A stretch of 64,000 nt of DNA from a virus (lineage: Duplodnaviria > Heunggongvirae > Uroviricota > Caudoviricetes): the IMG/VR virus record IMGVR_UViG_2778261503_000006; one strand, written 5' to 3'. Of this stretch, positions 12,503 through 51,787 are shown in pieces (the stretch's first letter is position 1; every line of letters begins with the position of its first letter). A program made the translations under genes and the position numbers. A model generated the notes under the pieces. It ran no database searches. It was not told the origin of the DNA and saw nothing but the letters and a program-made list of their open reading frames with translations.

Positions 12503-12520
12503 AGTTAAATTTCTAACATA
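12503..12520 (-). promoter_or_regulatory. operator-like motif (core TGTTAGAAA, reverse orientation)
   Basis: agttaaatttctaacata; member of the dispersed motif family. Confidence 0.4.
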
Positions 12521-12608
12521 GTGTATTTATATACACTGTTGATCCTGGTGGATGGGATCGAGTAGGATCGCGGTCACTGCTCCGGTAGCGACTGCCAAAA
12601 AAGCAAAA

Positions 12609-12629
12609 GCCGCTTCTCAGCGGCTTTTT
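12609..12629 (+). terminator. rho-independent terminator
   Basis: gccgcttctcagcggc followed by ttttt. Confidence 0.7.
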
Positions 12630-12781
12630 GGGTGTATAAATCCACTGCCATAGATTTATACGGTAGATAGATTTTTTCACGGAACTATCTGGCGAGTATT
12701 TTAAATTCAGTTTCAGTAACTTTCAACACTTCTGAGTATAAAAACAACACTGAATACCACAAAAAAATCAAAGGTCATCAG

Positions 12782-13654
12782 TTGAGTTTTTTTGCTCGTC
12801 ATAGCGGTCTTCTTTCCCCTTCACATAGCGCCATTATTGCCGAGTTCGCCAACCTGGCAGGGTCTACCGATGAATACATGATCCGTCGCTCATATGCTGA
12901 TATGTCCGAGATTACAGGACGCAGTATTTCTACTGTGCGCCGGGCATTTGCTGAAGCGACGAAGTGCGGAATGCTTGTTAAGCAACATCAGGTAGCGAAT
13001 AACAATGCCCAGGTGTGTAACGTATATCGGTTTACGACACAATTTCTCCACTTCATTCATGTAGCAATGGAGATAGGGGGTAAGCAGGGCATCAAATTTG
13101 CCAACGCCACAAAACTGGTTAAGCAGTTGATTTCAAAGGTTCGTTATTTTTTTGAAACTGGGAACCCCCTGTTCAAATTGAACAAGTCCCCCCATGTTCA
13201 AAATGAACAGCCAATAGAAAATAAGAGTCACTCTATAGCCAAAAGAAGAGAAAGATCATGCGCGGTTCAGCCAAAGGCTTCACCTGCAGATAGTTCTCAA
13301 ACGGATAACGGGGTACTGGATAAAAAACCAGTAATCAGGGAAGAACATACCAACCACTGCCTGGCGGCGGCAAAAGCGAGAGCTGCAAAGCGTCGTTCAG
13401 ACGAGGGGCACGCAAAACGGCAGGCTCTGTATCGTACCGCTGAAAATCTGGCAAAAAAATTTGCATGGATACGTAGTGCCGCTACCGCAGTGAATAAGCC
13501 TAAACAATCCAGTGCCCTAGATTTCTCAATGGATTATTCTGGCTCCCAGGGGTGTGCAACCATTGGTGAAGCCTTTGACCTGATGAAACAGCGTGGCTAT
13601 CGGTCTGAATTTGACCGTGAGGATTGGTCAATCCCTGCGGGATTTAGGGGATGA
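12782..13654 (+). CDS. DNA-binding protein, possible replication initiator (RepL-like by size and context)
   Basis: 290 aa from TTG 12782; HTH-like ITGRSISTVRRAFAEA; preceded by GATC cluster and palindrome. Confidence 0.4.
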   Translation: MSFFARHSGLLSPSHSAIIAEFANLAGSTDEYMIRRSYADMSEITGRSISTVRRAFAEATKCGMLVKQHQVANNNAQVCNVYRFTTQFLHFIHVAMEIGGKQGIKFANATKLVKQLISKVRYFFETGNPLFKLNKSPHVQNEQPIENKSHSIAKRRERSCAVQPKASPADSSQTDNGVLDKKPVIREEHTNHCLAAAKARAAKRRSDEGHAKRQALYRTAENLAKKFAWIRSAATAVNKPKQSSALDFSMDYSGSQGCATIGEAFDLMKQRGYRSEFDREDWSIPAGFRG

Positions 13655-13707
13655 CCTGTGTGTCTACAAAACATCCCAATGATCGGAAAATGCTCGGCCG
13701 ATTATTT

Positions 13708-13738
13708 ATGTTAGAAAATTAATTTGCTGTTTCTAAAA
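13708..13738 (+). promoter_or_regulatory. operator-like motif pair (atgttagaaaattaattt plus inverted partial gtttctaaaa)
   Basis: upstream of the icd-like/ant operon. Confidence 0.45.
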
Positions 13739-14067
13739 CGGAATGTATGATCTGCATCATCGACTGAAGTCATCCATTGCTGAAATTTTTAGTTGATCTT
13801 CCATGTTTTCAGGCTTATATTCATGCCGTCGTAGCAAATTCTGCGACCGGGTTTGACAGCCTGAATGTTAGTGCGGACAACCGCAGATTTCCGATATTGC
13901 GGTATTTTTGTGTCCGTAAACCGCGTTACGCCCGAATTATGGTGGGGCGTGATGGGGAGGCTTCGGCCTGCTGGTTTCACTAACGCCAGTCTGTCAACCC
14001 TGTCACGTCCTGCCACCTGTTTGACAGCGGGTGGCAGGTTGTTAAACCTGTTAGTGAGGCCGTAACT

Positions 14068-14292
14068 ATGGTTAATGCCAATCCTTGCTCACGTCCAGAA
14101 TTCATCTGGCGTTTCCACTCCCTGCAAAAACGCTGCGATCACTTCGCAATTGCCGCAACCGAAAAAGAAGCCCGTTCTCTGATCCCTGATCAGCATGGTG
14201 TTCTTACTGGTCGTTTCTCTACTTCCCCACAACCAAACACTAATCCCTGGTATCGCAATATTACCAATCCCGGCATTGCGGAGGCTCACTGA
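14068..14292 (+). CDS. icd: Icd-like host cell division inhibitor family small protein
   Basis: 74 aa; EFIWRF...AATEKEAR pattern; immediately precedes an antirepressor gene with TGATG overlap. Confidence 0.55.
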   Translation: MVNANPCSRPEFIWRFHSLQKRCDHFAIAATEKEARSLIPDQHGVLTGRFSTSPQPNTNPWYRNITNPGIAEAH

Positions 14293-14999
14293 TGGGTATC
14301 TGCATTCTCGAAAAACTATCAATGACCAGCATTGAGATTGCGGAGCTGGTGGGAAGCCAACACTCTGACGTTAAACGTAGTATTGAGCGTATGGTTGCTC
14401 GAAGCATTATCCGAAAACCGCCAATGGCTGTTTTCGAAAAAATCAATAACTTAGGATTGCGTCGTGGCGTTGAGGCTTACGTCTTCGAAGGCGAGCAAGG
14501 CAAACGAGACAGCATCATTGTCGTCGCGCAGCTCTCTCCCGAATTCACCGCCCGGCTGGTGGACCGCTGGCGCGAACTGGAAGAACAAGTACGCCAGCCG
14601 TTGACCGAAATAGAGATGATCGCTGCAATGGCTGCGAATGCAGTTCAGCAGCAAAAGCTGATTCATGCTGTTGAGTCAAAGGTTAGCCAGGTCGCTGAAA
14701 CCGTCGAGCAAATAAAGAAAGGCAATATTCCGGAAGGCTACATTGGCTACCGCCAGTTGGCGGCGAAATGCGGCCTGACTGAAGCCAAATGCCGAAACCT
14801 TGTCAACGCTTACCGGATTCCCACCGATACACATGAGTTTTTGACTCCAGAGGGGGTATTGTCGCGTCGTTCCATCGTGGCCTTATCTCCCTTCATGAAT
14901 GCTTTTAACCGGATGATGTCGGAGGCTGAACACCGAGGAAAACGCTGGTATCACCCCAAAATGGGGCAATTCCAGGTGATCGGTTGGGGAGGTGAGTGA
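14292..14999 (+). CDS. ant: phage antirepressor (Rha/Ant family)
   Basis: 235 aa; MTSIEIAELVGSQHSDVKRSIERM N-terminal Rha-type motif; C-terminal half near-identical to 52799..53740. Confidence 0.7.
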   Translation: MGICILEKLSMTSIEIAELVGSQHSDVKRSIERMVARSIIRKPPMAVFEKINNLGLRRGVEAYVFEGEQGKRDSIIVVAQLSPEFTARLVDRWRELEEQVRQPLTEIEMIAAMAANAVQQQKLIHAVESKVSQVAETVEQIKKGNIPEGYIGYRQLAAKCGLTEAKCRNLVNAYRIPTDTHEFLTPEGVLSRRSIVALSPFMNAFNRMMSEAEHRGKRWYHPKMGQFQVIGWGGE

Positions 15000-15196
15000 T
15001 GGACATCATGCAGGCGGTAAAAAAAATCAGGGAAGGACAGGCTGAAGTGTGCCGCCGTAAAGCATGGAGTGTTGGTGTATGGGCCTGGCCTGATAATTAC
15101 TCTACTACCGGATGGTTTTGTATTAATGGACTCCAGATCCGGGAAGTTGATTTATCGACGGCTGATATAGTCGGTAATGATTGGATCGTGACTTGA
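14996..15196 (+). CDS. DUF2829-like small protein (Tad2-like fold candidate)
   Basis: 66 aa; KKIREGQAEVCRRKAWSVGVWAWP...NDWIVT; homologous to the C-terminus of the fused 313-aa Ant at 52799..53740. Confidence 0.5.
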   Translation: MMDIMQAVKKIREGQAEVCRRKAWSVGVWAWPDNYSTTGWFCINGLQIREVDLSTADIVGNDWIVT

Positions 15197-15204
15197 AGCG
15201 TGAT

Positions 15205-15229
15205 GCCCCGGCCTGGCCGGGGCTTTTTT
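15205..15229. terminator. bidirectional rho-independent terminator between convergent genes
   Basis: gccccggcctggccggggc followed by tttttt. Confidence 0.7.
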
Positions 15230-15714
15230 CATGCCTCATTAGTTGAGGTTGCTGCGTCTCCGACTGGTAACAGGGCGGTATTGCGTGGTTCGCCAGCAGG
15301 CCAGCGATAGCCAGACACTCTTGATGTTGGGAATGCGCGAATATTAACCGCATCCCCCTGGTTCCCACCCAGGACAAGCAGATCGCCATTGGCGCGGCGT
15401 CCGACAACGAAGCCTACGTGCCCACCGCCTACGCGGGTAAATACAACGATACATCCGTATGCCGGTGTATCTAATTTCTCGCCCCAATCCAGATAGGATT
15501 TTGCCGACTCAAATCTTGTTGAGCGAATGCCTACACGTTCCAGCATTGCACCGACAAATGCTGCGCACCACGGCGTTTCATCGTCTTTAATTCCGCCGCG
15601 CTTGATGTCGCGCCAGAACTGAACGATTTCAGGGTTGTGTTTAGCGCCTTTTATTTCAGTCAAGCCAATGTGCTTACGGGCTTCAATTAGCCAGCGAGGT
15701 TCAATGTTTGCCAT
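15229..15714 (-). CDS. CHAP/NlpC-P60-like putative peptidoglycan hydrolase (TIGR02594-like)
   Basis: 161 aa; N-terminal Cys (PWCAAFVG) and downstream His (GGGHVGFVVG) spaced as in papain-fold amidases. Confidence 0.55.
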   Translation of the reverse strand: MANIEPRWLIEARKHIGLTEIKGAKHNPEIVQFWRDIKRGGIKDDETPWCAAFVGAMLERVGIRSTRFESAKSYLDWGEKLDTPAYGCIVVFTRVGGGHVGFVVGRRANGDLLVLGGNQGDAVNIRAFPTSRVSGYRWPAGEPRNTALLPVGDAATSTNEA

Positions 15715-15865
15715 ATTTTTCTCCCGGTCATGGGTTAATAAGTAGGCAAACTATGGGGAGTATGTGATTTTGACGGTAGTATCGTCCCCCTGAAAATAAC
15801 ATTCTCCATACCCTCTCAACCGTACCGCATAGCGGAATTTTTTACGGTTTAGAGGGGGAAATCCT

Positions 15866-18800
15866 TTGGACAAACTACTTCATTCAATCAGTGAAGCCTC
15901 CAGCTTAGGCGAACTGATTGAAATTGTTAGTCGGTTGCATAAATTACGTGCTGTTGCGACCTTTGGCGTCAGGAAAGCCGATGGCGTCAGTATTCAGAAA
16001 ACACGCCGGGCAGCAAACAATGCCGCAGTAAATCTTCTTAATTCCCTTCCGCCCGGCTTCGATGGGGCGAAATTAACTGACGAACAACGTCAGATTCTTG
16101 CTGGGTATACCGGTGAAGGCGGCCTGACAGATGGTGAGGGCAGCCAATACGAATACTACACGCCACAGTTTATGGCTGAAGGTATATGGGAGCTGTTTGC
16201 TGACTACGGTATTGATGGCGGTCACGTACTGGAACCATCAGCTGGCACGGGTATTTTCCAGGAGACAAAACGGCAGGGAATGATAATGACCAGCGCCGAG
16301 CTGTCTCCGATCTCCGGTCGAATCAACCAGCTGTTGCACCCGGAAGACGATGTGAACATTGGGGCGTTTGAGGCTCTGGCGGCGAAAGACGCAATGTATG
16401 ACCACGCTGTTGGTAACGTACCGTTTGGCGAAGGCCGTTCCGGCGTTGCAGGGCTTGATCCGGCATATGCAAACGAGAAGAACGTTGGCAATTACTTTGT
16501 GCTGCGCACGATCGACAAGGTTAAACCTGGTGGGCTTATCGTATTGGTGGTGCCGAATGGCATGACTGATGGTACGAAATACAAAAAATTGCGCGATAAA
16601 GTCAGCCGTAAAGCGGAATTTTTGGGCGCGCATCGTATGCCTTCCGGTACGTTCAGTGAATCAGGTACAGATACCGTGGTGGACGTATGGGTATTGCGTA
16701 AACACCCGGAAGCCTTCCTGGAGATGATCCCCGATACGGATGATTCGACGCTCAAATCGGCAAACGTCCTTTGGGTTACCTTCCTCAAAGGGAAATGGTT
16801 TACAACCGAAGGGAAGCGATTTGTTTACGGCGACATGGAACGTACCAGCTTCCGCAATACCCTAGTGGTGAAAAAAGACGGTCGTGTATCCAATGAGTCG
16901 ATGAAAACCGCGCTATCTCGTCGCTTTGATAGTCGCATCAATTGGGATTTGCTCGGCGTAACTACTCAGGCATGGCAGGGCGCGAAAGTGGGCGATAAAC
17001 GCCTTGTAGGCGGTATCTGGCATGAGTTTGATGGTCTGAAATGGGTTCAGGACACGACAACCAAATCCTCCGCGCTTGATGTAAGTCGATATGGTGTTTC
17101 GACGTTTGGCGATCTGCAGATCGCGTTCCAGTCAACAAACGGGATTCTGGCTTTGTCATGGGACCAGATATCGGCGATCGCGTCCGACTATCCATCGGTT
17201 GTCAGTGATGAAGTGGCAGCAATGATTCGCTTTGCTGGCAAGCAGCGAGAAAAAGACAGGGAGCGCGTTATGCGCGGTGCACTGATAGGTCAGTTGATCA
17301 ACAAGGCACTTGATTTGCGTAACCTGGGGGTGAACGTTGATGACAAACTGGCAGATGCATCCCGCTTGGCGGCAGCAGAAGTTGCGAAGTATGGACCACC
17401 GCACGCGATTAAGCTGAATGGGCTTGCTGAAGCTGGCGCTAAAAACTGGATGACGTTCACTGGCAATGTGAAACAGGATGGTTCCACTTCTGACCTTCTG
17501 GCAGGGCGACTTGATGTAACGGATGGTGCTGCCGGTATTGACTTTACGCGTCCTGAACAAGTGATAGCACATCTTTTTAGTGATGTAGCCCTTAATCCTA
17601 TAACGCTGGGCGACTTTCGTGAGGCGTTTGCTGGTGAACTGCCAGAGGACGACGACGCGGTCCTTGAATACCTGGCGAAATTTGATGATATCGCTATTGA
17701 TGGGTATGGCTGTCTGCTGCCGATGGACCGCGCCACCAGCGGCGATGTTGCAACCAAAACAGCACTGCTGGTGGGCTGGCGTGATGCGTCAACAGGTGAG
17801 CAGAAAGCGAACTTTGAGCGTCAGTTGGCGAAAATCGAAGAGAAACGCATTTTCACGCCACTAAATAAAGTCACCGTTAATCTGAATGCCCGCTGGCTGG
17901 ATCGCCGCTTGATAAAAGAGTTCCTGGCAGAGCAGGGCTATGACGAGTTTAAGTACACTGAACCTGATCTGAAGGTCGTCGATGGCATTCTGGTATCTCC
18001 GGACGATTACGAAGGTAAGGACGGGGTATTTACCGGCTATCAGCTACGAACCGTAAACGGCAAAAACGGGAATGAGTTCAAGAAGGCCAACAATAAAGAC
18101 GGCTTCCTGAACCAGTTAGAAAACTACCTGAACGGTGTTAAACCGCGTGGGCAGAACGCTAACGAGTACCTGGATAAAATTGCTCAACTGGAAGTTAGCT
18201 TTAACGACTGGTTACGCACCCACCCGCAGGCGGATCAGATAGCCCGTGACTATAACGACGCATTCAATGGTTTCATTCCGTTCACACATTCTGACGCACC
18301 GCTTGGCCTGGAAGGGATTAGTGGAAAGCGCATTCCTCTGACTTATCAGAATGAAGAAGTTCGGCGCTTGTCAGAAGATGGGCGTGGCATCATGGGATTT
18401 GGTACCGGGCTGGGTAAAACCACGACCGCGCTTGCGCTTGAGGCGTATAACTTCGAAACAGGTCGCACTAAACGCACGTGTATTGTTGTTCCGAAGGCGG
18501 TTTATCAGAACTGGTATCACGAGGCACAGAGTTTCTACAGTGCTGATGCCTTCGCCAATATGATGTTTATCGGTTTGGATGAAGTTCGTGATGACAGCGG
18601 AAATATTCTGACCGCGCCGGTGCTTGATGAAAATGGCGAACCACGCCTCGACAGTAACGGGCAGCCTCTTACCAGAAATGTTGTGAAAGAGTCCTCCAGC
18701 GCCGTTATCGTTCAGCGTATGAACATGATCCCGTCGTCAAATTGGCGAACGGTCATCATGACAAAAGAACAATTCGCGTCTATCCCGCTACGAGAAAAAA

Positions 18801-22702: not shown

Positions 22703-22738
22703 CAGATAAGGAGCGGCCCCAACTGGGGCCGAATTTGA

Positions 22739-23173: not shown

Positions 23174-23175
23174 CC

Positions 23176-23436
23176 ATGCGAAAGAATCGTAGGTTTACGG
23201 TCGAAGACCTAAAGGAATATTCCATATCGAAGGGGTATATCCTTGAGTTCCACCGATACAAGAAGGTTTTTACGCTGCGAAAAGCAGAAAACCCTGCGAA
23301 CTGGAGCTGGATATACTTTCCTCACACCGATGATAAGTTGGTAGAACTTGTTGATGATTTAACCTATGAAGGTTGGTTGATCGCAATCGACAAGACAATC
23401 AAAGAATTATCCGAACAGGATAAAATAACCCTTTAA
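23176..23436 (+). CDS. hypothetical protein
   Basis: 86-aa ORF, 3-bp gap from previous. Confidence 0.45.
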   Translation: MRKNRRFTVEDLKEYSISKGYILEFHRYKKVFTLRKAENPANWSWIYFPHTDDKLVELVDDLTYEGWLIAIDKTIKELSEQDKITL

Positions 23437-23572
23437 AAATAACAGGTTGGGTAAATGCCATGCGATTTACCCTCCTTGTTGATTAAGGTCACTCTTTACT
23501 CTAAAAGCAAATCCGACCTGTTGCATATAGACCATCCTTGAGTAGTATCTCTCTTGTTTTACAAATCTAACG

Positions 23573-24067
23573 TTGTTGTTATTATTTCGCATATTTACTA
23601 TCAATGGGTGTGTTAGAAAAATAGCGCGAAAGAGAAGGCGTCGCAGTGAATATTCTGAAACATCCCCACATGCCGCAGCTCTTAGAGAACTGGAGAAAAA
23701 CCCAGATCTAATCAAAAGGAACCATGAGCATTACGAGCAGGTTCGCGTCCTGGACTGGATGTATCGCAATATGCGTTATGTGTATGAGCATACTCACGCC
23801 ACTCCAAACGGTGGCCTGCGAGGCATAAGGACGGCAATAAAAATGGTGGCAGAGGGCCAAAAGAAGGGATATCCCGATCTTTCTATAGACCTTGCTTGTG
23901 GGGGATACCACGGAATGCGCATTGAGATGAAACATGGGAGAAATCGCCTGACTCCCGAACAACTCGTCTGGATGACTCGCCTCACAGAAGCCGGTTACTA
24001 CTGCTTTGAGGCGCGCAGTGCCGCTGAAGCCATAAAAGCTATCACGGAGTATGTTTGTCTTGATTAA
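23573..24067 (+). CDS. VRR-NUC domain nuclease (true start uncertain, probably internal)
   Basis: HEHYEQVRVLDWM...GYPDLSIDLACGGYHGMRIEMKHG: PD-(D/E)xK VRR-NUC pattern; operator-like motif lies inside the track's N-terminal extension. Confidence 0.55.
   Translation: MLLLFRIFTINGCVRKIARKRRRRSEYSETSPHAAALRELEKNPDLIKRNHEHYEQVRVLDWMYRNMRYVYEHTHATPNGGLRGIRTAIKMVAEGQKKGYPDLSIDLACGGYHGMRIEMKHGRNRLTPEQLVWMTRLTEAGYYCFEARSAAEAIKAITEYVCLD
23608..23625 (+). promoter_or_regulatory. operator-like motif (gtgtgttagaaaaatagc)
   Basis: core TGTTAGAAA. Confidence 0.4.
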
Positions 24068-24081
24068 ACGGAGAAATCGTT

Positions 24082-24650: not shown

Positions 24651-24670
24651 ATATGTTAGAAAAATAATTT
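24651..24670 (+). promoter_or_regulatory. operator-like motif (atatgttagaaaaataattt)
   Basis: 20 bp upstream region of 24692 gene. Confidence 0.45.
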
Positions 24671-25900: not shown

Positions 25901-25919
25901 TGTGTTAGAAATCTAAAAT
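25899..25919 (+). promoter_or_regulatory. operator-like motif (aatgtgttagaaatctaaaat)
   Basis: core TGTTAGAAA. Confidence 0.4.
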
Positions 25920-26055: not shown

Positions 26056-26074
26056 AAGTGTTAGAAATGTATAG
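26056..26074 (+). promoter_or_regulatory. operator-like motif (aagtgttagaaatgtatag)
   Basis: core TGTTAGAAA. Confidence 0.4.
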
Positions 26075-26650
26075 TAATGCAAGAGCACGCTTTGGCACCG
26101 TGCAGGCCAAAGTTCAGCAGGTTTAGTGCGGAAAGTGGTTTCAGAGAGAGCACTTTGCGGAGTAAACGACAATACATGTTGAGCCACGGAAGGTCTTTTT
26201 AAGGTGTTCATTGATGATGGTCCGGCAGAGAGTAACGGTACATGCTGCATCTAATCATCAATGCACATCTTCAACATTAAGGAGGCATAGGGATTTTTGT
26301 GGCGGTTACCTTTTGCCCTGAGTCTCCTTAATGTTGCGGTAATGCACCTATGCGGATGTGGCCTTGCATTGTGTCTTGAAAGAATGGGGTAAGGCCGGGG
26401 ATATCCCCAGGGGGAGGCACCCCCGCTGCAACGAACAGCCACAGACGGCAGTCGAGTGATGGAAACGTGTAAAGACTTTAAACCTCGTTACGGCTGGCGT
26501 GGCAAACGCGACAACCGAGACAGAGCGGTGACGGGCGGAGAGAGTGCCGCATCAAGAAAGAAGCCGACTTGTGATCCCTTTCAGCGGGCATTTGAAAGTG
26601 AATCCAGCTCAGGCAGTCGGCTTCTTTCTTGTGTGAGATGTAGCGTATTT

Positions 26651-27135: not shown

Positions 27136-27210
27136 GATGGTGTAGCTCAGCGGTAGAGCAGTTGGCTGTTAACCAACTGGTCGGTGGTTCGAATCCACCC
27201 ACCATCGCCA
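27136..27210 (+). tRNA. tRNA-Asn (anticodon GUU)
   Basis: manual cloverleaf: acceptor gatggtg/caccatc, D-arm gctc/gagc, anticodon loop ctGTTaa, T-loop ttcgaat, 3' CCA. Confidence 0.85.
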
Positions 27211-27215: not shown

Positions 27216-27302
27216 GGGGAGTTAGTCCGTAGGGGTAGCGGGGTAGACTGTAAATCTACTGTCATTGCGACTCGGGTGGTTCGACTCCATCACTCCCCAC
27301 CA
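27216..27302 (+). tRNA. type II tRNA-like gene, anticodon GUA (Tyr) by manual fold; D-arm non-canonical
   Basis: acceptor ggggagt/actcccc, anticodon stem gtaga/tctac with loop ctGTAaa, long variable arm, T-loop ttcgact, 3' CCA. Confidence 0.55.
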
Positions 27303-27306: not shown

Positions 27307-27382
27307 GCCGGTTTAGCTCAGTTGGTAGAGCAGTCGCTTTGTAAGCGAATGGTCAGCGGTTCGATCCCGTTAACCGGCACCA
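27307..27382 (+). tRNA. tRNA-Thr (anticodon UGU)
   Basis: acceptor gccggtt/aaccggc, D-arm gctc/gagc, anticodon loop ttTGTaa, T-loop ttcgatc, 3' CCA. Confidence 0.8.
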
Positions 27383-28352: not shown

Positions 28353-28428
28353 GGCCCTTTAGCTCAGTGGTTAGAGCGGGCGACTCATAATCGCACGGTC
28401 ACCGGTTCAAGTCCGGTAGGGGCCACCA
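28353..28428 (+). tRNA. tRNA with anticodon CAU (elongator Met or Ile2/lysidine type)
   Basis: acceptor ggccctt/aggggcc with G1-C72, D-arm gctc/gagc, anticodon loop ctCATaa, T-loop ttcaagt, 3' CCA. Confidence 0.8.
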
Positions 28429-29456: not shown

Positions 29457-29848
29457 TGTACGGGACTACCAAATTAAGCACTCAACAGGCCACCAATATG
29501 GAGTGGTCTATCGCTAACTGTAAGATCGAGTCATGCAATGCCACGCGTACTGATGTGGGCCATAAAAGCACTATAACAGGCTATCTAGTAATGACCACCA
29601 GGGGGATAAGGGTTAGATTTCGCTGGAAAGCAGAGCAAGTAACCCCATTCAGAGAGCCATCAATGCCGCTGCAGGTTGAGCAGGATTATCTATGTTTACC
29701 AGAAATAGATGGAGGAATGCTGGTGGAGTCTGATGGTAGTAAGGCTGATTTTGAAGCCAATTTGAAGCTGGCACAGGCCGTAATCAATAGTTATCGCGGA
29801 CAGTGGATCGCAAAAGTGAAACATGTTGTTCGTTTGTCTCGCTGGTAG
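29456..29848 (+). CDS. hypothetical protein
   Basis: 130-aa ORF, start overlaps previous stop. Confidence 0.45.
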   Translation: MYGTTKLSTQQATNMEWSIANCKIESCNATRTDVGHKSTITGYLVMTTRGIRVRFRWKAEQVTPFREPSMPLQVEQDYLCLPEIDGGMLVESDGSKADFEANLKLAQAVINSYRGQWIAKVKHVVRLSRW

Positions 29849-29864
29849 CATTAGATATTTAGTA

Positions 29865-29883
29865 TTAATTTTCTAATACATTC
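29865..29883 (-). promoter_or_regulatory. operator-like motif, variant core (attaattttctaatacatt), reverse orientation
   Basis: upstream of Lpa-like gene; second variant ttagatatt at 29851-29859. Confidence 0.35.
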
Positions 29884-29956
29884 ATCTTTTTACCAGTCTA
29901 TACAGTTTTAACATTCTCATTATCATCCCCTCGGTCATTTCCTGCCCGGGGGATTA

Positions 29957-32483: not shown

Positions 32484-33521
32484 TTACCAGAGCTTCGCGG
32501 CGTACTGCGTTTGGGGGAATGTGTATCCGTAACGTTCTTCGATTGCTTTGCCGTATTTTTTACGAGCTTCATTCAGTTTTATGCCGGTCAGGTCGTCTCC
32601 AGAGGCCATCATTACGTCTAACAATTCCAGATCCATTTTATCCAGCCTTGCCATTGCTTCACGTGATGTACGTATCTTACGCTCAATGATATGGCGAATA
32701 GCCGGATCGGCATCCTCCAGCATCTTAGCGGATTTCTGCTTAAGGCTTTCATTGCGAATATCGATGTTCCTTAAGATGTACGACTTCGCAACGTAGCTTG
32801 GCTGGTGTTTTTCCAGGTCACGAACACGATATAAGTTAAAATCGCCGAGAAGGCTGCAAGGTACCGATTCGACGCCAGAATAAATTGTAATGCTCCGGCG
32901 CTCACCAACATTATTGACAACGGGGATCGTTGTCTTCGGTAGTCTTGCGAAAACCAATGCGCCATGTGCGCCAACTCTAAAGCGAGAAAGGGCATTGCTG
33001 CCTTCGATGTTTGTTGTCAGCACAACATCTGTATATGCCTCTTTACGCGCCCGGTAGATCTCGCCTTCAGGCTCAGCTTCAAAGAAGCGCTGTTCTTCTT
33101 CAAGAGCACCTACGATTTGAGAAAAAACCCTATTTTTCAGGCTTTTCTTTATGATTTTGTCGTATTTTTTGAGCAATTGTTCACGTGTAAATGTACGTGT
33201 TGTTGTAGCGCTTTGCACAACAACATGCGTGCTTTGATTGGTGTCCTCAATGATGAATGGGATCGGAGAATATACAGACTCAACAATGTTCGACGCTTTG
33301 CCGTCGGCATCGCGGCACATGTCAACGAAGGCTTTCCATTCAGCAAGACATTTTTCAGCTTCTTCTAATATGTTTTGGTCATGCGTTAATGCAACATGGC
33401 GGAATTCCTCGCCAGCATAACTGGTATCATGGAAAACAGAGTTTGCGACCACCAGCTCTTTCCACCGTTCAGCGGTTTGCAGGAACCGTTTGTACTCTTT
33501 CTCGATCGACTTCTTACTCAT
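32484..33521 (-). CDS. hypothetical protein divergent from the recombinase locus (candidate immunity repressor by position only)
   Basis: 345 aa; operator-like motif 14-37 bp upstream of its start; no motif recognised. Confidence 0.5.
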   Translation of the reverse strand: MSKKSIEKEYKRFLQTAERWKELVVANSVFHDTSYAGEEFRHVALTHDQNILEEAEKCLAEWKAFVDMCRDADGKASNIVESVYSPIPFIIEDTNQSTHVVVQSATTTRTFTREQLLKKYDKIIKKSLKNRVFSQIVGALEEEQRFFEAEPEGEIYRARKEAYTDVVLTTNIEGSNALSRFRVGAHGALVFARLPKTTIPVVNNVGERRSITIYSGVESVPCSLLGDFNLYRVRDLEKHQPSYVAKSYILRNIDIRNESLKQKSAKMLEDADPAIRHIIERKIRTSREAMARLDKMDLELLDVMMASGDDLTGIKLNEARKKYGKAIEERYGYTFPQTQYAAKLW

Positions 33522-33534
33522 TATTCCTACTCGA

Positions 33535-33558
33535 TTTAGTTTTCTAACATAAAATTAC
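33535..33558 (-). promoter_or_regulatory. operator-like motif overlapping the promoter region of the 32484..33521 gene
   Basis: tttagttttctaacataaaattac; core TGTTAGAAA on minus strand. Confidence 0.45.
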
Positions 33559-33731
33559 TATGACAAATTTATGTCGAATAACAGAGTGAGTAAAGGATCG
33601 AACTGTGATTTTTTGTCATCAAATTTAGAAAACCAACTGTATAAACCACGCTTCGCAAATTAAAGACCATGAAGGCAACGTGTTACTGGTCAGAATCAAT
33701 CTGTGATGGATTAAAAAAAATCGCCATTTTA

Positions 33732-33915: not shown

Positions 33916-34944
33916 ATGAGTGAATTAATTATCTCTGGCAGCTCCGGTGGTTTTCTGCGCAACATTGGCAAAGAGTACCAGGAGGCCGCAGAAAACTTTA
34001 TGCGGTTCATGAATGACCAGGGGGCTTATGCGCCGAATACTCTGCGCGACCTCCGGTTGGTGTTTCATTCATGGGCGCGCTGGTGTCACGCTCGCCAGCT
34101 TGCCTGGTTTCCGATCTCACCAGAAATGGCCCGCGAGTATTTTCTTCAGCTGCATGATGCCGATCTGGCTTCGACCACCATTGATAAGCACTACGCCATG
34201 CTGAATATGCTGCTTTCGCATTGTGGCCTTCCGCCACTTTCGGATGATAAAAGTGTTTCTCTGGCTATGCGGCGCATCCGGCGCGAAGCGGCAACTGAAA
34301 AAGGCGAACGAACAGGCCAGGCTATACCGCTTCGGTGGGACGATCTGAAACTGCTCGACGTCCTGTTGTCCAGGTCAGAACGGCTGGTGGACCTGCGCAA
34401 CCGGGCTTTTCTCTTTGTTGCATACAATACGCTGATGCGTATGTCGGAAATCTCGCGTATTCGTGTAGGAGATCTGGATCAAACAGGTGACACTGTCACG
34501 CTACATATTTCACACACGAAGACAATAACGACCGCCGCCGGGCTTGATAAGGTGCTTTCCCGTCGCACTACCGCTGTGCTGAATGACTGGCTGGATGTTT
34601 CCGGGCTTCGCGAACATCCTGACGCAGTGCTGTTCCCGCCGATACACCGTAGCAATAAGGCCAGGATCACGACAACGCCCCTTACTGCACCTGCAATGGA
34701 GAAAATATTCAGCGACGCCTGGGTGTTGCTGAATAAAAGAGATGCTACGCCAAACAAAGGAAGATACCGGACGTGGACCGGGCATAGTGCACGCGTCGGG
34801 GCCGCTATTGATATGGCTGAAAAGCAGGTGTCTATGGTGGAGATCATGCAGGAAGGAACCTGGAAGAAACCGGAAACACTTATGCGGTATCTTCGCCGTG
34901 GCGGCGTGTCTGTGGGGGCTAATAGCCGCCTGATGGATTCGTAA
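33916..34944 (+). CDS. dre: Cre-family tyrosine recombinase (Dre-like)
   Basis: 342 aa; SVSLAMRRIRRE, LRNRAFLFVAYNTLMRMSEISRIRVGDL and WTGHSARVGAAIDMAEKQVSMVEIMQEGTW align block-for-block with P1 Cre. Confidence 0.85.
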   Translation: MSELIISGSSGGFLRNIGKEYQEAAENFMRFMNDQGAYAPNTLRDLRLVFHSWARWCHARQLAWFPISPEMAREYFLQLHDADLASTTIDKHYAMLNMLLSHCGLPPLSDDKSVSLAMRRIRREAATEKGERTGQAIPLRWDDLKLLDVLLSRSERLVDLRNRAFLFVAYNTLMRMSEISRIRVGDLDQTGDTVTLHISHTKTITTAAGLDKVLSRRTTAVLNDWLDVSGLREHPDAVLFPPIHRSNKARITTTPLTAPAMEKIFSDAWVLLNKRDATPNKGRYRTWTGHSARVGAAIDMAEKQVSMVEIMQEGTWKKPETLMRYLRRGGVSVGANSRLMDS

Positions 34945-34963
34945 ATTAAATTTCTAACACATC
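34943..34963 (-). promoter_or_regulatory. operator-like motif (aaattaaatttctaacacatc)
   Basis: starts within the recombinase stop codon. Confidence 0.4.
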
Positions 34964-43193: not shown

Positions 43194-43203
43194 GTGTTAC
43201 TCC

Positions 43204-43467: not shown

Positions 43468-43468
43468 A

Positions 43469-43879: not shown

Positions 43880-43880
43880 C

Positions 43881-45072: not shown

Positions 45073-45164
45073 ATCGCGACGATGGCTGTGGTTGTTGGAC
45101 AAAATACGATTCAACAAAATACGATTCACCAACTCAGAAAATTTGGAGAATTTCATGCGGAGCC

Positions 45165-46294: not shown

Positions 46295-46926
46295 CCTTCA
46301 CAGTTGTAATCACGACAGCCTTCAAAATCATATGGGCTGTACTGCCAGGTTATTTTTCCGCAATGCGGACAATTCCAACGCACCTTCCCGCTTCGCGACT
46401 TCTTTCTTCTGTTCTGCTCTTTCAACCAGTCAGGCATGACCAAACCTGCGCCCTGAACCATTGTTCTGCGGTTAAAGTTATTGATATTGAACGTCCGGCG
46501 CTTTGCTGCATCAGCAATGGAAAATGGCAACCAAACTATTCCTGGTTCGTTTTTGTTGGCGAAGCTAAAGATGGTCGCTTTACTGAAGTCATCTGTTGGC
46601 AATCCACCGTGTTGAAGCCAGTAAACATCGTTGCCGTTCCAGCTACCTTTTTTGTAGGCCACATACTCAGTGCAATCTGACTCAATCAGGCTTTCTGTAG
46701 GGATGTACTGGCAATCAACGTGCCACACAGCCATTGCATCCACACTATCGGCACAAACAGGCTGATCGATATCTCGCCCACAATTCCAGGCTTTTTGGGC
46801 TTCTTCCAGCGTGTAAATATGAGCGCGATCGATATCAGAACTGTAACCATTGCCGTTATGGCAATGGAATGAGGCGTTATTACCCACAGTTTCACGCAAG
46901 CACATCATGTAAAAGCGGTTATTCAC
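46282..46926 (-). CDS. hypothetical protein with C-terminal zinc-ribbon-like Cys cluster
   Basis: 214 aa; WNCPHCGK...CRDYNCEG. Confidence 0.45.
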   Translation of the reverse strand: MNNRFYMMCLRETVGNNASFHCHNGNGYSSDIDRAHIYTLEEAQKAWNCGRDIDQPVCADSVDAMAVWHVDCQYIPTESLIESDCTEYVAYKKGSWNGNDVYWLQHGGLPTDDFSKATIFSFANKNEPGIVWLPFSIADAAKRRTFNINNFNRRTMVQGAGLVMPDWLKEQNRRKKSRSGKVRWNCPHCGKITWQYSPYDFEGCRDYNCEGWRE

Positions 46927-47212
46927 TGGTTGCCTCCGCTTCCCACGTTTTCAGACTTTCACCACAGAATGGGCAAAATGAAACTCGAATAGGCGATTTA
47001 GAAAATTCACCAGACCGCAGCATGATCAGGTCTTGTGAATGAATTAATTCATGGTTATAGATTTTGTATTTCAGCAGACCTTTCCGCGTCGTGTATTCAG
47101 CATCCTGCTCCAGAGATTGTGCCAACGCCGCGCACGGTTCTATTTTTTTGTCATTAATCAAACAAGTGGAGATTCTGCACTTTGCAGCTCCGTCACCATT
47201 ACCTTGACTCAT
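46919..47212 (-). CDS. hypothetical small Cys-rich protein
   Basis: 97 aa; CPFCGES motif. Confidence 0.4.
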   Translation of the reverse strand: MSQGNGDGAAKCRISTCLINDKKIEPCAALAQSLEQDAEYTTRKGLLKYKIYNHELIHSQDLIMLRSGEFSKSPIRVSFCPFCGESLKTWEAEATSE

Positions 47213-47225
47213 TGCATTGCTCCCA

Positions 47226-48221
47226 TCAGTTATTGAACGTGATCACTCCGCGCTCAATGGCGAAGTCGAAAAGCTGGTTAGCGGCTACGTAAAGGCGTAT
47301 GCCATGTGCTTTTTCCCATGCCCGGACATCGTTTTCTGCGCTTCTGGCGCAGTCATCGCAAAGAGGAACAGTCCAGCGGTCGTGTTCGTTTAACGAGCGG
47401 GCGCGGTACATGAATGGGTGATTAACCTTGCCGCCGCAGCCTACACACGGGCGAGACACCACAAACCGGAGATAAGCCGGGCTTTTTCCGAGTAAGGTTT
47501 TTGGACGGCGCATATATAGGAGGCCAGAATCTTCATCGACGGACAGATTGACGATCTGCTCTGCGGAAATATCCACCAGCTCGCGGGTACTATGCTCCCA
47601 AGTAATATCCGACTCTTTCAGAGTGCCGGTAGGGATTTCAGTTTTTGGCTGACAAAATGCAATGCGACCAGCTTCATCAGGCAGTTCGTCTTTAAGATTC
47701 CGGCGAATGGCCCAAAAGGTGAGTTCAACCATGCTCAGATCGCGATCTGGCGGAAGTTTTAACTCGCTGGCAGCCCAGTTCATAATCCAGTTGGCGCGAT
47801 TCAGTGACAGTTGGTCTTCCAGCTTGCCGTATCCCTTCATCATGTATTCCGCATCATGCTTCCAGCACAGGCGAACGGCAGAACCGTTATAGAAATGGGT
47901 GGTTAGCTGGTGGCTGCAATCGCGCTTATCATGCACCTGGCAATCGTGAATGTTGGTGCTAACCCAGTGAACGAGAGAATCCTCACCACCTAACGCGTTA
48001 AATACGCGCTCACTTTGAAAAAAGGGTGCCAGTGACTGGTTGGCAACCAGTGAATAATTCAGGTCAACGACACCATCAGGGGTGTTTTCAGCCTGTTCAC
48101 GCGGCAATGGGGATATAAGAAAACGGCGTCCTGCGCCGATGTAATTGCTGGTGGGCTTATCTACAGGAAAGACAGCCACACCAGTTTCATTTACGACATA
48201 TGGGGTGATTATTGCACTCAT
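47226..48221 (-). CDS. hypothetical protein with C-terminal Cys/His zinc-finger-like motifs (DUF968-like impression)
   Basis: 331 aa; CVGCGGKVNHPFMYRARS...DRWTVPLCDDCA; operator-like motif pair upstream. Confidence 0.5.
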   Translation of the reverse strand: MSAIITPYVVNETGVAVFPVDKPTSNYIGAGRRFLISPLPREQAENTPDGVVDLNYSLVANQSLAPFFQSERVFNALGGEDSLVHWVSTNIHDCQVHDKRDCSHQLTTHFYNGSAVRLCWKHDAEYMMKGYGKLEDQLSLNRANWIMNWAASELKLPPDRDLSMVELTFWAIRRNLKDELPDEAGRIAFCQPKTEIPTGTLKESDITWEHSTRELVDISAEQIVNLSVDEDSGLLYMRRPKTLLGKSPAYLRFVVSRPCVGCGGKVNHPFMYRARSLNEHDRWTVPLCDDCARSAENDVRAWEKAHGIRLYVAANQLFDFAIERGVITFNN

Positions 48222-48260
48222 AATGCATACCGACTCTGTTTTGTTCCGATCGGTAAAATA

Positions 48261-48293
48261 ATATGTTAGAAAACTAAAATCAATGTTCTAACG
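48261..48293 (+). promoter_or_regulatory. operator-like motif pair in inverted orientation (atatgttagaaaactaaaatc / aatgttctaacg)
   Basis: 40-70 bp upstream of minus-strand gene starting at 48221. Confidence 0.45.
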
Positions 48294-48449
48294 TGATTTT
48301 GAGTGCGTAAATGATTTGATCAGACTTTAAGCTGCCCTCCCTTCACCTGCATTAGCGTCAGATTTCCGCTAAAAACCGCGCCCGTGTCTAGTTTCTATAG
48401 CCAGAACCATCAATACGGCTATATAAATTCACTTCATGCAGAGCCTGGG

Positions 48450-48761
48450 TCATGCGGCAACCTTCTCACGCAGCCAGATACAAACCGGACCATCTTCAGT
48501 GTCATGAATAGAGCCAACAAACCAGCCTTCACCCTCTGGTCGCTCCGGTTCCCAGGCGGCAATATCGGGACCAGCTGCGTCCAGATCAAAATCATCTTCA
48601 TCCATACTGCGAATAGTCCACTGAAGATTATTTTCCTTCATCCAGGCGTCAAATTCCTCAGTGGAAATATATTCACGACCTGCGCAAAACTTCTCATACT
48701 CCGGATGTGTCCAGCAGCCATATTCATCACGTTCTACCGGCATTTCTTTAATTGTGTTCAC
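48450..48761 (-). CDS. hypothetical acidic protein
   Basis: 103-aa ORF. Confidence 0.4.
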   Translation of the reverse strand: MNTIKEMPVERDEYGCWTHPEYEKFCAGREYISTEEFDAWMKENNLQWTIRSMDEDDFDLDAAGPDIAAWEPERPEGEGWFVGSIHDTEDGPVCIWLREKVAA

Positions 48762-48982
48762 TCTTCATCCTCCAAATCAGCAACCGCGTCCATCACATCA
48801 GAACCGCGAATAACTTCAAAAGCGCGGCAGGCCATTTGAAATACCCGTTGCTCTTGCGGGTGCGGAGACTCCCAATATTTGAAGCCTGGGCGATGCGTGT
48901 ACCCCATCATGGAATAAAAATCGCCAGCAAGTTCAATCGCGGCATCAACAAGTTCGCGATTTGTCATCGTCTGTTCTGTCAT
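48758..48982 (-). CDS. hypothetical small protein
   Basis: 74-aa ORF, overlapping stop/start with neighbours. Confidence 0.4.
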   Translation of the reverse strand: MTEQTMTNRELVDAAIELAGDFYSMMGYTHRPGFKYWESPHPQEQRVFQMACRAFEVIRGSDVMDAVADLEDEE

Positions 48983-49254
48983 TTGGTTTTCTCCTGTCTG
49001 AACATCACTATCATCAGGTCGCCTTTTGTCGCTATTCTGGCTGTTGTGCCTGGTTCAATGCGGCTAAGTTCAAATGCGTCATAGAACGCTTCTAATGCCT
49101 TCTGGCGTAGTTCCTGTTTGCGCCGTTTTTTCCACTCTTTTAGGAAAATGGAACCCAGCCATCGCCAGGTACGGGACATGATGTAAAGCCAACCAAGAAG
49201 TGCCAGACCGGTATTTAGGGCCGTATCGAGCGTTATCGTGGTGTCGATATTCAC
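48979..49254 (-). CDS. hypothetical small membrane-anchored protein
   Basis: 91 aa; LALLGWLYIM hydrophobic segment. Confidence 0.4.
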   Translation of the reverse strand: MNIDTTITLDTALNTGLALLGWLYIMSRTWRWLGSIFLKEWKKRRKQELRQKALEAFYDAFELSRIEPGTTARIATKGDLMIVMFRQEKTK

Positions 49255-49499
49255 TGTGGTGGTTCCTGCTTTTCTGCCTTCAATACCATGCGAGAACCAT
49301 CATCCAGCTCCCAATTAATTTCACCGCCTTCTGCCATGACCAGATGCCAGACGAGTTGAGCGGCCTCGTTGGTTACATCACGACCGCGATCATTGCCAAC
49401 ACGACGTTTTGTTCCATCCCCTAAGTCACGCATTTTTGCCAACACGATGGTTTTTGATAGCGGTGAAAAACCAAGCTGTAGTCGTGCGGTATTACTCAC
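49251..49499 (-). CDS. hypothetical small protein
   Basis: 82-aa ORF. Confidence 0.4.
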   Translation of the reverse strand: MSNTARLQLGFSPLSKTIVLAKMRDLGDGTKRRVGNDRGRDVTNEAAQLVWHLVMAEGGEINWELDDGSRMVLKAEKQEPPQ

Positions 49500-49502
49500 T
49501 GT

Positions 49503-50006
49503 TTACCTTCCTTTTCTAAGCTGTTCGGCGATATCTTCGAGAACGCCATCAGAGAATGAGCGGTCAAAATCGCCTTCCCGCGCATTAGCCATAAACTCAG
49601 TAGAGGTAAGAATCATCCGGGCAATATCCGCGGCGTTCTTCGCAGTATCATCAATAAAACCAGCTTCCCAAGCAGCCAGCATCCTGTTCGCCACAAAGTA
49701 AGCGCCCTCCTTGCGTGCTTCAGTCTTCACTTCATCCAGGAAAGTGTCGGTCGCAGGAGTGGTTTTTTGTGGTGATAGGGCGAGACGAATTGTTTCGAGA
49801 GCTGGATCTATTTCCACTGTTGGCACCTTGATAAAGCCAAGCTGCACGCCATTCATAATGAACGTGCGGCGATCCTCACATATCGCATTCAGTCTCGCAT
49901 TCTCCGCCGCCAGCGCAGCACACGCTTTCTCAAGTCGGGAAATTTCCGTTACATACTCAGCGTTACGCTCTGCCAGTTGTGCTGGCGTTAAACCTTCAGA
50001 CTTCAT
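49503..50006 (-). CDS. Ea22-like C-terminal-module protein
   Basis: 167 aa; DTFLDEVKTEARKEGAYFVANRMLAAWEAGFID parallels the C-terminus of 45572..46294. Confidence 0.45.
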   Translation of the reverse strand: MKSEGLTPAQLAERNAEYVTEISRLEKACAALAAENARLNAICEDRRTFIMNGVQLGFIKVPTVEIDPALETIRLALSPQKTTPATDTFLDEVKTEARKEGAYFVANRMLAAWEAGFIDDTAKNAADIARMILTSTEFMANAREGDFDRSFSDGVLEDIAEQLRKGR

Positions 50007-50313
50007 GTACTCTCCTTTCGAAATAAACGTACTGATTAATCATGCCCAGGGGCATTTCGAGTTTTTCCGCGATCTCACGGCGGGGAACACCACACTGATG
50101 AAGCTGCCGCGCCAGTTCTATATCGCTCTGCCGGAATTTGGCTGACGGATGAAAGTCTCCTTTCAGAATCATGCTGATCCCCAACTCCCGCGCTTTAGTC
50201 CTGACGGCATCACCGGTACGACCGATCAGCTTCCCAATACTCTCGACCGTCATAGTTCCGGCGCACTGGCGGAGTATCATGATTTCTGCCCTTCCCCATC
50301 CCCGCCAGCTCAC
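49996..50313 (-). CDS. small DNA-binding protein (HTH-like)
   Basis: 105 aa; IGKLIGRTGDAVRTKAREL and RREIAEKLEM helix-turn-helix-like segments. Confidence 0.4.
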   Translation of the reverse strand: MSWRGWGRAEIMILRQCAGTMTVESIGKLIGRTGDAVRTKARELGISMILKGDFHPSAKFRQSDIELARQLHQCGVPRREIAEKLEMPLGMINQYVYFERRVHEV

Positions 50314-50921
50314 GCAGAACTCCTTCTAACCAAAAGAACGCCATCTTCAGAAACAACGTTGCAGGACTTCAGGTAATTCATTGCCTCTTTCGGTAATGGA
50401 TTCTTTGGATCGGCGTTTGCCAGGGATTTCGATAACCTCATGATAAATTTGATCATTACCTTCTGGCGGAGCTTGTGCTCATGAGATAAAGACAGGTAAT
50501 AGGAAATGGTATGGGCTAAACGCTCACGAAGCTGTTCTGTGCCGTGATATACAGCAGCGATATCACGCAGTGCATTGACCAGTTCCCGGTAAATATGCGG
50601 AGCAACCTGGCATTCAATGTTGGTTGGTGACTCATAAATTACAGTCAGCCCCAGCTTTTCAGCCAGCGCGTGCTCTGCGCGAGCACCAACCGATTCTTCC
50701 CATCGATTGAGCAAGTAGATCGCATCAGCAGAACGCACCATTGCCAGGCAAATATCCATGTATTCACTCTGACAAAGGCCACCAGGTAACATAGCTGGAT
50801 TCAGAACGATATGCCCTTCAGCCATCAACTCGCTCGCTTTCGCATTAAACGCCGCACGGTTGTAATCTGGATAACCAGTCATCGGCCCCGCGATGTAAAT
50901 TTTCAAAACACGTTTCACCAT
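50310..50921 (-). CDS. DUF4406-like (nucleoside 2-deoxyribosyltransferase-like) N-terminal domain protein
   Basis: start set at ATG 50921 (MVKRVLKIYIAGPMTG...); KIYIAGPMTG motif. Confidence 0.5.
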   Translation of the reverse strand: MVKRVLKIYIAGPMTGYPDYNRAAFNAKASELMAEGHIVLNPAMLPGGLCQSEYMDICLAMVRSADAIYLLNRWEESVGARAEHALAEKLGLTVIYESPTNIECQVAPHIYRELVNALRDIAAVYHGTEQLRERLAHTISYYLSLSHEHKLRQKVMIKFIMRLSKSLANADPKNPLPKEAMNYLKSCNVVSEDGVLLVRRSSA

Positions 50922-51073
50922 CAAAATTTCCCCAGAATCGTGACGCAAAACATAAGCACTGCGAAAAGCTCAATACCAAGCTCAAGTAGCGCCAACGCCC
51001 CGAAAAACAACACATAGAACAGGCCAATCTCATTCACAGATGGCTGGTGGATCGCACTTAAAGCTATAAGCAT
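50921..51073 (-). CDS. candidate 50-aa hydrophobic peptide (below the track's size cut-off)
   Basis: manual translation MMLIALSAIHQPSVNEIGLFYVLFFGALALLELGIELFAVLMFCVTILGKF; GGAGGA RBS; stop overlaps next ATG (TGATG). Confidence 0.25.
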   Translation of the reverse strand: MLIALSAIHQPSVNEIGLFYVLFFGALALLELGIELFAVLMFCVTILGKF

Positions 51074-51113
51074 CATGTCCTCCAAACAGTTATCAGGAAT
51101 GATATTAATGTTT

Positions 51114-51146
51114 TGTGTTAGAAAATCAATTTTGAATATCTAACCA
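51114..51146 (+). promoter_or_regulatory. operator-like motif pair (tgtgttagaaaatcaatttt plus inverted variant atatctaacc) in a divergent promoter region
   Basis: between minus-strand operon ending 51073 and plus-strand gene at 51194. Confidence 0.45.
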
Positions 51147-51193
51147 TTTTGATCAATCATAGAAAAATCGTTGAAAAGTAAGAGACTGCCATC

Positions 51194-51772
51194 ATGCAGA
51201 AACAGAGTTATTGGGAGAAACAGAGACAAAAAGCCATGCAAAAATTGGCTGACCCGGCCTGGCGAGAGGAACAAAGGGCAAAGCGCCTTCAACAAGCTCA
51301 ACGCCAGCAGCAGCGAGCGAGAGAAAAAGCCGCATCGCCTGAATATCGGCAAAAGAAAATTGAAAAAGCAAAGCAATATGAACAGCGGAGAAAAGATAAA
51401 GCTGTATCCGCTCCGTCCAAAAAAACACGCACGTCACGCGGCCTGAAAGGCAGATCACTCACAGCCGATGAACGCCGGATACAGACCGCTATCGGTGCTC
51501 TCCCCTGCATTGCCTGCCATATTCACGGGCAACATAGCCCAGTGGTATCCCTGCACCATATCTTCGGGAGAACGGCAGAGAACGCGCATAAATATGTCCT
51601 CCCTTTGTGTAAATGGCACCACCAGTACGCAGCGCCAGCCGAGGTCAGAGAACAATATCCCTGGCTGGTCCCTGTTCATGCTGACGGAAAAATAGGCGGA
51701 AAAGCAGATTTCATGCGGCACAATGCCGATGAAATGACGTTGTATCAGATGGCGATTGAGTTGATAAATTAG
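51194..51772 (+). CDS. ref: Ref-like HNH-family nuclease with basic disordered N-terminus
   Basis: 192 aa; K/R/Q-rich first ~80 aa then Cys/His cluster LPCIACHIHG...SLHHIFGR...LPLCKWHHQ. Confidence 0.55.
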   Translation: MQKQSYWEKQRQKAMQKLADPAWREEQRAKRLQQAQRQQQRAREKAASPEYRQKKIEKAKQYEQRRKDKAVSAPSKKTRTSRGLKGRSLTADERRIQTAIGALPCIACHIHGQHSPVVSLHHIFGRTAENAHKYVLPLCKWHHQYAAPAEVREQYPWLVPVHADGKIGGKADFMRHNADEMTLYQMAIELIN

Positions 51773-51787
51773 TTTTCTAACATTTTA
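51767..51787 (-). promoter_or_regulatory. operator-like motif (aaattagttttctaacatttt)
   Basis: overlaps the Ref-like gene stop. Confidence 0.4.

Follow-up and report, generated by a model that had tools for sequence, protein, structure and literature searches.

We examined a 64,000-nucleotide (nt) stretch of caudoviricete phage DNA (IMG/VR record IMGVR_UViG_2778261503_000006; hereafter the window, meaning this whole stretch at its full length), in which an asymmetric motif recurs between genes and stands directly upstream of a gene for a C1-type prophage repressor. Megablast assigns the window to the P1-like phage-plasmids of the D6 group: Escherichia phage D6 (MF356679.1) matches it at 96–99% DNA identity over most shared segments, and the Escherichia coli plasmid NZ_CP117014.1 at 99.1%. 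The window runs opposite to the D6 record and spans D6 from about 32,000, via the rox site, to about 65,470. D6 (immC region AY753669.1) is essentially the same element, with an identical C1 protein and with the sites at the same places, and differs from the window by several replaced segments. D6-like phage-plasmids are common; in PLSDB, tblastn detects this C1 or a related protein in 149 plasmids, which come from Escherichia, Salmonella, Shigella, Citrobacter and other genera. Our clade comparisons draw on these plasmid matches and on contigs encoding C1 relatives, among them a Shigella plasmid (L007), two metagenomic contigs (L015 and L016), and plasmids from Citrobacter (L014), Leclercia (L008) and Pantoea (L013); a related-loci search of genome contigs gave four P1-type loci only.

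The c1 gene (32484–33521, minus strand) encodes a D6-type C1 repressor of 345 residues, which presumably reads the motif and is 100% identical in sequence to the D6 C1 annotated as C1-like in GenBank record AY753669. By sequence comparison, the product is a true but remote, family-level homologue of P1 C1 and not an equivalog, because a 240-residue BLASTP alignment with P1 C1 shows 21% identity (E 2e-8), hhalign matches a profile built from five D6-type C1 sequences to P1 C1 with 98.6% probability (E 1e-15, 234 columns), and precomputed matches to PF27008 (Phage_P7_repressor_C1) exist for database relatives 44–99% identical to it, while the NCBIfam model phage_rep_C1 (NF041318) scores 25.4 bits against a cut-off of 500 for the P1 C1 equivalog. 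The D6-type protein is 62 residues longer overall than P1 C1, and its C-terminal 100 or so residues lie past the part that can be aligned with the latter. The 345-residue C1 has no match in our local Pfam copy and no sequence-related solved structure, and its AlphaFold model (predicted local distance difference test score 79) gave structural matches of a generic helical kind only.

An asymmetric 19-mer enriched in intergenic DNA

The exact core of the motif, TGTTAGAAA, has 11 matches on the two strands against 0.67 expected from dinucleotide-preserving shuffles of the whole window, and none of 100 shuffles reaches 11. These copies lie at 12510 (−), 13709 (+), 23611 (+), 24654 (+), 25903 (+), 26059 (+), 33541 (−), 34951 (−), 48264 (+), 51116 (+) and 51774 (−). 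In the aligned copies, information spans positions −1 to +17 around the core, which gives the asymmetric 19-mer tRTGTTAGAAAWnTAAwtT. A 19-nt matrix recovers 14 sites of at least 14 bits in the window compared with 0.37 in shuffles, comprising the 11 exact copies, a one-mismatch copy upstream of lpa at 29862–29880 (−), and two moderate sites at 23555–23573 (+) and 57550–57568 (+). All but one of the 14 lie outside long open reading frames (ORFs), although non-coding DNA makes up just 16% of the window (binomial P = 6e-10); the sole ‘coding’ site (23609) falls within the first 50 nt of an ORF with a doubtful start. The full D6 genome holds 19 matrix sites, 17 of them intergenic, and the structural-gene block at 1–12 kb of the window holds none.

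Word counts agree with the matrix. Chi-related words aside, TGTTAGAAA is the commonest 9-mer of the window, and TTAGAAA is the top over-represented intergenic 7-mer, observed 15 times against 2.1 expected from the intergenic dinucleotide content; the same unbiased 7-mer method applied to P1 returns the known C1 operator as its top word. Chi itself (GCTGGTGG) occurs 45 times in the window (30 on the plus and 15 on the minus strand, for example at 6509, 11877, 14345 and 63864) against 1.65 expected, and is the most over-represented 8-mer there and in each relative examined, P1 included.

Chance recurrence in A/T-rich intergenic DNA, or the remnants of a short mobile repeat, could be invoked on the grounds that this intergenic DNA is A/T-rich and that the motif, its two G positions aside, is A/T-rich as well. 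We give this explanation almost no weight: chance is rejected by the shuffle counts, the matrix scan, the 7-mer enrichment and the intergenic bias, the flanks of the copies are unrelated to one another, and the sites are retained across elements even where the intergenic DNA around them has diverged.

An earlier note, made from the letters of this stretch, had listed 12 places for the motif, and all 12 hold it, with every coordinate right to within 3 nt; the lpa-upstream site, 3 nt from where it had been listed, is the one-mismatch variant TGTATTAGAAAATTAATAC. The frequency of the motif, which the note had proposed to measure against AT-rich intergenic DNA, lies far above that expectation. The inverted partial partners that it described are real and follow one fixed geometry, TTAGA-N16-TCTAA, seen four times against 0.08 expected. 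Its placement of the sites almost always within 100 bp upstream of an operon start describes about half of them; several others instead sit at the stop codon of the gene before them (12502, 25901, 29862, 34943 and 51766).

Placement of the sites relative to P1 operators

The P1 C1 operator has the consensus ATTGCTCTAATAAATTT and 22 dispersed sites (PMC8546580). As a reference we used the P1 genome AF234172.1, in which all C1 operators (about 20) are annotated and from which the extracted operators reproduce this consensus.

The c1 operator candidate of the window (33533–33551, minus strand, 27 bits) lies 12 nt upstream of the c1 ATG at the position of P1 Oc1a/b and is the presumed autoregulation site. 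A weak distal site (33621–33639, plus strand, 9 bits), inverted in orientation, is found some 100 bp ahead of c1; this place reads TTTTCTAACA, with the full core, in both metagenomic contigs and TTTTCTAAAT in the window and the Shigella plasmid. The c4 site (13707–13740), at the position of P1 Oc4, is bivalent, with a strong half at 13707–13725 (+) and a weak half at 13722–13740 (−), upstream of the c4 RNA, icd and ant. The repL site (12502–12520, minus strand, 28 bits) is monovalent and lies 11 nt past the pro stop codon, upstream of the repL-like gene, where P1 has OrepL. Directly adjoining it is an inverted repeat, AGTGTAT-N4-ATACACT (12520–12537), and at 12605–12726 a minus-strand promoter-like site (12726→12698, 10/12 matches) precedes a terminator-like hairpin (12628→12605); the latter segment could yield a short antisense RNA in the repL leader, recalling P1 PaskilA.

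Two sites precede the pmgM-like gene. The first (23555–23573, plus strand, moderate at 15 bits) overlaps the −35 element of TTTACA-16-TATTAT, the second (23609–23627, plus strand, 21 bits) lies 24 nt downstream of its −10 element, and together they correspond to P1 O26, upstream of pmgL-pmgM. The second site is inside the ORF as called from TTG 23573, in the D6 annotation likewise; the pmgM-like gene may truly begin at GTG 23641, which follows a purine-rich stretch. The pmgS site (24652–24670, plus strand, 28 bits), 22 nt upstream of the pmgS-like ATG, takes the position of OpmgRa/b, and a further site (25901–25919, plus strand, 27 bits) begins 1 nt past the pmgS stop. The next (26057–26075, plus strand, 20 bits) heads the tRNA/tciA region, at the place of Obanab, which in the P1 annotation heads the tRNA-tciA-ban operon. 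Four tRNA genes lie downstream of it (27136–27207, 27216–27299, 27307–27379 and 28353–28425), comparable to the head of the P1 ban operon.

The lpa site (29847–29880), at the Olpa position, is bivalent, with a strong half at 29862–29880 (−, 20 bits) and a degenerate half at 29847–29865 (+); it is fully bivalent in the Shigella plasmid. The lpa start codon is directly preceded by an inverted repeat rich in GC, CCCCTCGG...CCCGGGGG (29927–29952), which is conserved in four D6-group elements and may be a translational control hairpin. The dre site (34943–34961, minus strand, 29 bits) overlaps the stop codon of dre and precedes the following ORF by 57 nt. At 48262–48295, a bivalent site (48262–48280, plus strand, 28 bits; 48277–48295, minus strand, 10.5 bits) stands 41 nt upstream of a minus-strand pdcB-like gene and is likewise fully bivalent in the Shigella plasmid. 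The ref site (51114–51147; halves 51114–51132, plus strand, 26 bits, and 51129–51147, minus strand, 8 bits) takes the position of Oref, between ref and a divergent minus-strand operon. A site overlapping the ref stop codon (51766–51784, minus strand, 27 bits) heads a second isrK/C4-icd-ant module and corresponds to Omat, which overlaps the ref stop in the P1 annotation too. The last (57550–57568, plus strand, moderate at 15 bits, TATGTTATAAAAACAATTA) lies upstream of a simB-like gene and has a D6 counterpart at 72195 (13 bits). Just outside the window, D6 carries a bivalent site before hrdC-dmt, where P1 has Odmt.

The known P1 regulon and the predicted D6-type one are alike in plan. P1/P7 and the D6 type each scatter about 15–20 asymmetric sites over the genome, monovalent and bivalent mixed, and in both the sites accompany c1, c4-icd-ant, repL, lpa, ref, the region after ref, pmgR/S, pmgL/M, the tRNA/ban operon and hrdC-dmt; in both, many sites lie right at an upstream gene's stop codon, and a TCTAA core is common to them. 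They differ in execution. The D6-type site is 19 nt long (AawTTAnWTTTCTAACAYa in the P1 orientation), whereas the P1 site is 17 bp, and the positions flanking TCTAA differ; the c1-proximal site lies 12 nt from the ATG in the D6 type versus about 85–110 nt in P1. The bivalent geometry is TTAGA-N16-TCTAA in the D6 type, found at 13711, 29851, 48266 and 51118 (before c4-icd-ant, lpa, pdcB and ref), versus TCTAA-N8-TTAGT in P1, and the halves are 19-mers offset by 15 nt versus 17-mers offset by 11 nt.

Site orientation and candidate promoters

Relative to the downstream gene, eight sites are co-directional and five opposed. This bears on a very unlikely explanation, namely that the motif is a promoter element (an Lpa-type box or an unusual −35/−10 pair) and not a repressor site. 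In its favour, parts of the motif resemble promoter hexamers (TAAwtT, and TAACAT on the other strand), and some candidate promoters overlap the motif. The mixed orientation, together with the inverted pairs, argues against it; moreover, the motif precedes lpa and c1, neither of which could depend on Lpa, there is no site before the structural-gene operons at 1–12 kb, and the motif differs from the P1 late box, AAGTGAYTT. A separate word in the window, GTGATTT, is a better candidate for late promoters, and a search for late-promoter boxes of the P1 style gave two weak matches. GTGATTT itself is enriched in intergenic DNA (10 versus 2; for example at 5626 (−), 9745 (−), 15764 (+) and 62055 (−)), and several copies lie within gtatGTGATTTTtga; these resemble the P1 late-promoter −22 box AAGTGAYTT and may be Lpa-dependent late promoters.

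Mixed orientation likewise argues against stoperators of the mycobacteriophage L5 type. In L5, gp71 acts at many scattered asymmetric repressor sites that keep one orientation relative to transcription. The two systems are alike in that a single repressor has numerous asymmetric sites, which occupy short gaps between genes and in several cases come immediately after stop codons; they are unlike in that the present sites are of mixed orientation (8 versus 5) and include inverted pairs, and the proteins are unrelated.

A relaxed promoter scan places candidate hexamers at or beside many sites, with overlapping candidates at 13723, 23558, 48283, 51132 and 51790; the candidate TTTGCT-17-TATGAT overlaps the site at 13707, as in P1 the P2c4 promoter (former P51a) overlaps Oc4.

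A mosaic junction at c4

The c4 region provides what we regard, on sequence grounds, as the strongest single piece of evidence, a P1-type module placed under a D6-type site in a natural operator swap. Window and P1 share about 99% identity between the inner c4 promoter (about 13808) and the icd start, whereas upstream of a sharp mosaic junction near 13808 their sequences are unrelated. On the upstream side, P1 has Oc4 and the window has its D6-type bivalent site (13707–13740) at an equivalent distance. A P1-identical module behind a D6-type site is what would be expected if the motif does the job of the C1 operator. The immC region of the window (c1 and its operators), unlike 13808–14075, is unrelated to P1 at the DNA level.

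The arrangement of C4 RNA, icd and antirepressor gene behind a repressor-type site occurs in both immI modules, under the sites at 13707 and 51766. The C4 antisense RNA of module 1 (13935–14020, plus strand; Rfam RF01695, 69 bits) is identical to P1 c4, and its a1b1 targets lie at 13815–13867; that of module 2 (52442–52529, plus strand; RF01695, 76 bits) is diverged from P1 c4. Module 2 as a whole (52319–53740) consists of an isrK-like RNA (52319–52397), the C4 RNA, icd (52584–52799) and an antirepressor (52799–53740) that is 66% identical to the module 1 antirepressor (14292–14999).

The earlier proposal that the element has a distinct immunity specificity stands for immC alone: the c4 RNA of module 1 matches that of P1 exactly, so that part of immI is shared.

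Divergence of the putative operator word among C1 clades

The two matrices do not cross-detect. The P1 matrix has 25 matches in P1, two in D6 and one in the window (13 bits, inside the c1 coding sequence), and the D6-type matrix has 14 in the window, 19 in D6 and two in P1 (both coding). With the P1 consensus absent from the window, the suggestion of the earlier note that the consensus differs from that of P1 is borne out. When the matrices are aligned with each other, the best alignment is to the reverse complement, sharing TCTAA, and scores 5.05 against a column-shuffle null of 3.65 ± 0.58, a value that 20 of 1000 shuffles reach. Site orientation at syntenic operators is not conserved relative to P1 and is therefore of no help in choosing between the direct and the reverse-complement alignment; we prefer the latter because it shares the TCTAA core.

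Across relatives, the word changes with the repressor. The Shigella plasmid, whose C1 is 70% identical to that of the window, uses TGTTAGAAA, two perfect bivalent sites included, and the metagenomic contigs L015 and L016 (C1 51% and 44% identical) have TCTAACA at the same spots. The Citrobacter and Leclercia plasmids (C1 about 30% identical to that of the window and 49% identical mutually) carry TTCTAAGG, the Pantoea plasmid (C1 28%) carries ACACA..TTCTAAA, and the P1 word is GCTCTAAT. Each clade word is enriched solely in the intergenic DNA of its own element, at the same syntenic spots; just past the cre/dre-like recombinase gene, for instance, six of seven aligned elements have the variant of their own clade. 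Upstream of c1, TGTTAGAAAA is the sole invariant block in four D6-group elements (C1 44–100% identical), and TCTAA is invariant upstream of lpa in four relatives.

These patterns suggest, at roughly even odds, that the C1 family reads a conserved TCTAA core together with clade-specific flanks, that there are at least four groups that would not cross-react, that the bivalent architecture of the D6 group is inverted, and that cassettes can be rewired by operator swap alone. The proposed group words are GCTCTAAT for P1, TTTCTAACA for D6, ATTCTAAGG for Citrobacter/Leclercia and ACACA..TTCTAAA for Pantoea. The Leclercia/Citrobacter clade has a second recurrent site, TGATCAC (which contains a Dam site); it is strongly enriched in the intergenic DNA of both plasmids (9 versus 0.36 in the Leclercia plasmid) and clusters between the recombinase gene and c1, at 9150–9430 in the Leclercia plasmid and in the Citrobacter plasmid as well.

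Probable assignment of the motif to the C1 repressor

The motif exists and is enriched, intergenic, conserved, located at P1-equivalent positions and unlike the P1 consensus, and the neighbouring gene encodes a C1 homologue. We take tRTGTTAGAAAWnTAAwtT to be the predicted operator of the 345-residue C1-type prophage repressor, with a specificity of its own relative to P1, and put the probability of this assignment at about 85%. The proposal that these sites are operators of a C1-type repressor is supported by C1 homology, by placement at P1 operator positions and by the c4 swap, with binding itself predicted.

A mechanism modelled on P1 would then run as follows. The C1 homologue would bind these sites, probably with one molecule, as a monomer, on each asymmetric site or half-site, as in P1, and bound C1 would repress by occluding or blocking RNA polymerase and so stopping initiation. 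In the lysogen, by the same analogy, C1 may silence the two c4-icd-antirepressor modules, repL, lpa, ref, pdcB, the pmg genes and the tRNA operon, and C1 at its own upstream site may limit its own synthesis.

Several observations weigh against this assignment. Clade tracking fits any element-encoded regulator and therefore does not by itself single out C1, and the similarity between the D6-type and P1 matrices is modest and suggestive only. A strict sigma-70 consensus scan places no promoters on most sites, with a count not above chance; operator–promoter overlap is therefore shown loosely only. The sites at 12502 and 25901 are distant from the next start codon, and a hairpin stands between the former and repL. 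Nor are the partners of P1 C1, the co-repressor Lxc and the C1 inactivator Coi, evident at their usual places: the ORF at the lxc position (23176–23436) has no BLASTP similarity to P1 Lxc, and the interval from c1 to rox, the place of coi in P1, contains no ORF, no profile search having been made in either case.

Some of these points would also suit a different reader of the motif, encoded by the element or the host, such as a second repressor, an Lxc-like factor able to bind DNA on its own or a nucleoid protein. Clade-specific variants would co-vary with any protein encoded by the element, and the motif is partly A/T-rich and so resembles nucleoid-protein sites. We nevertheless consider another regulator unlikely: the sites replace, position for position, P1 C1 operators that were mapped by experiment, the c4 swap included, the strongest conserved site lies directly before c1, the TCTAA core is common with the P1 C1 operator, and a host factor would be expected to keep one word across elements in the same enterobacterial hosts.

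Operators are annotated in neither D6 GenBank record (MF356679.1 and AY753669.1). Full-text literature searches with the motif string and for D6 operators gave nothing relevant; the D6 genome paper lay outside their reach, and a prior description is possible.

Implications for P1-like phage-plasmids

A regulon of this kind is already known from P1/P7 C1 and is expected for the family, the understanding of which these findings leave unchanged. The by-products are more interesting than the regulon: the four proposed specificity groups with a TCTAA core, and the c4 operator swap. In practical terms, the operator consensus allows prediction of which elements exclude each other, and points to the early genes silent in lysogens and to P1 mosaic rewiring, of which the c4 junction is an example. 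Lying next to the widely used Dre/rox system, the D6 repressor and its site would serve in engineering as an orthogonal counterpart of P1 C1. If the code of a core plus flanks is true, C1/operator pairs would be ready-made orthogonal repressor/operator parts, and the immunity groups of these widespread plasmids would be readable from sequence.

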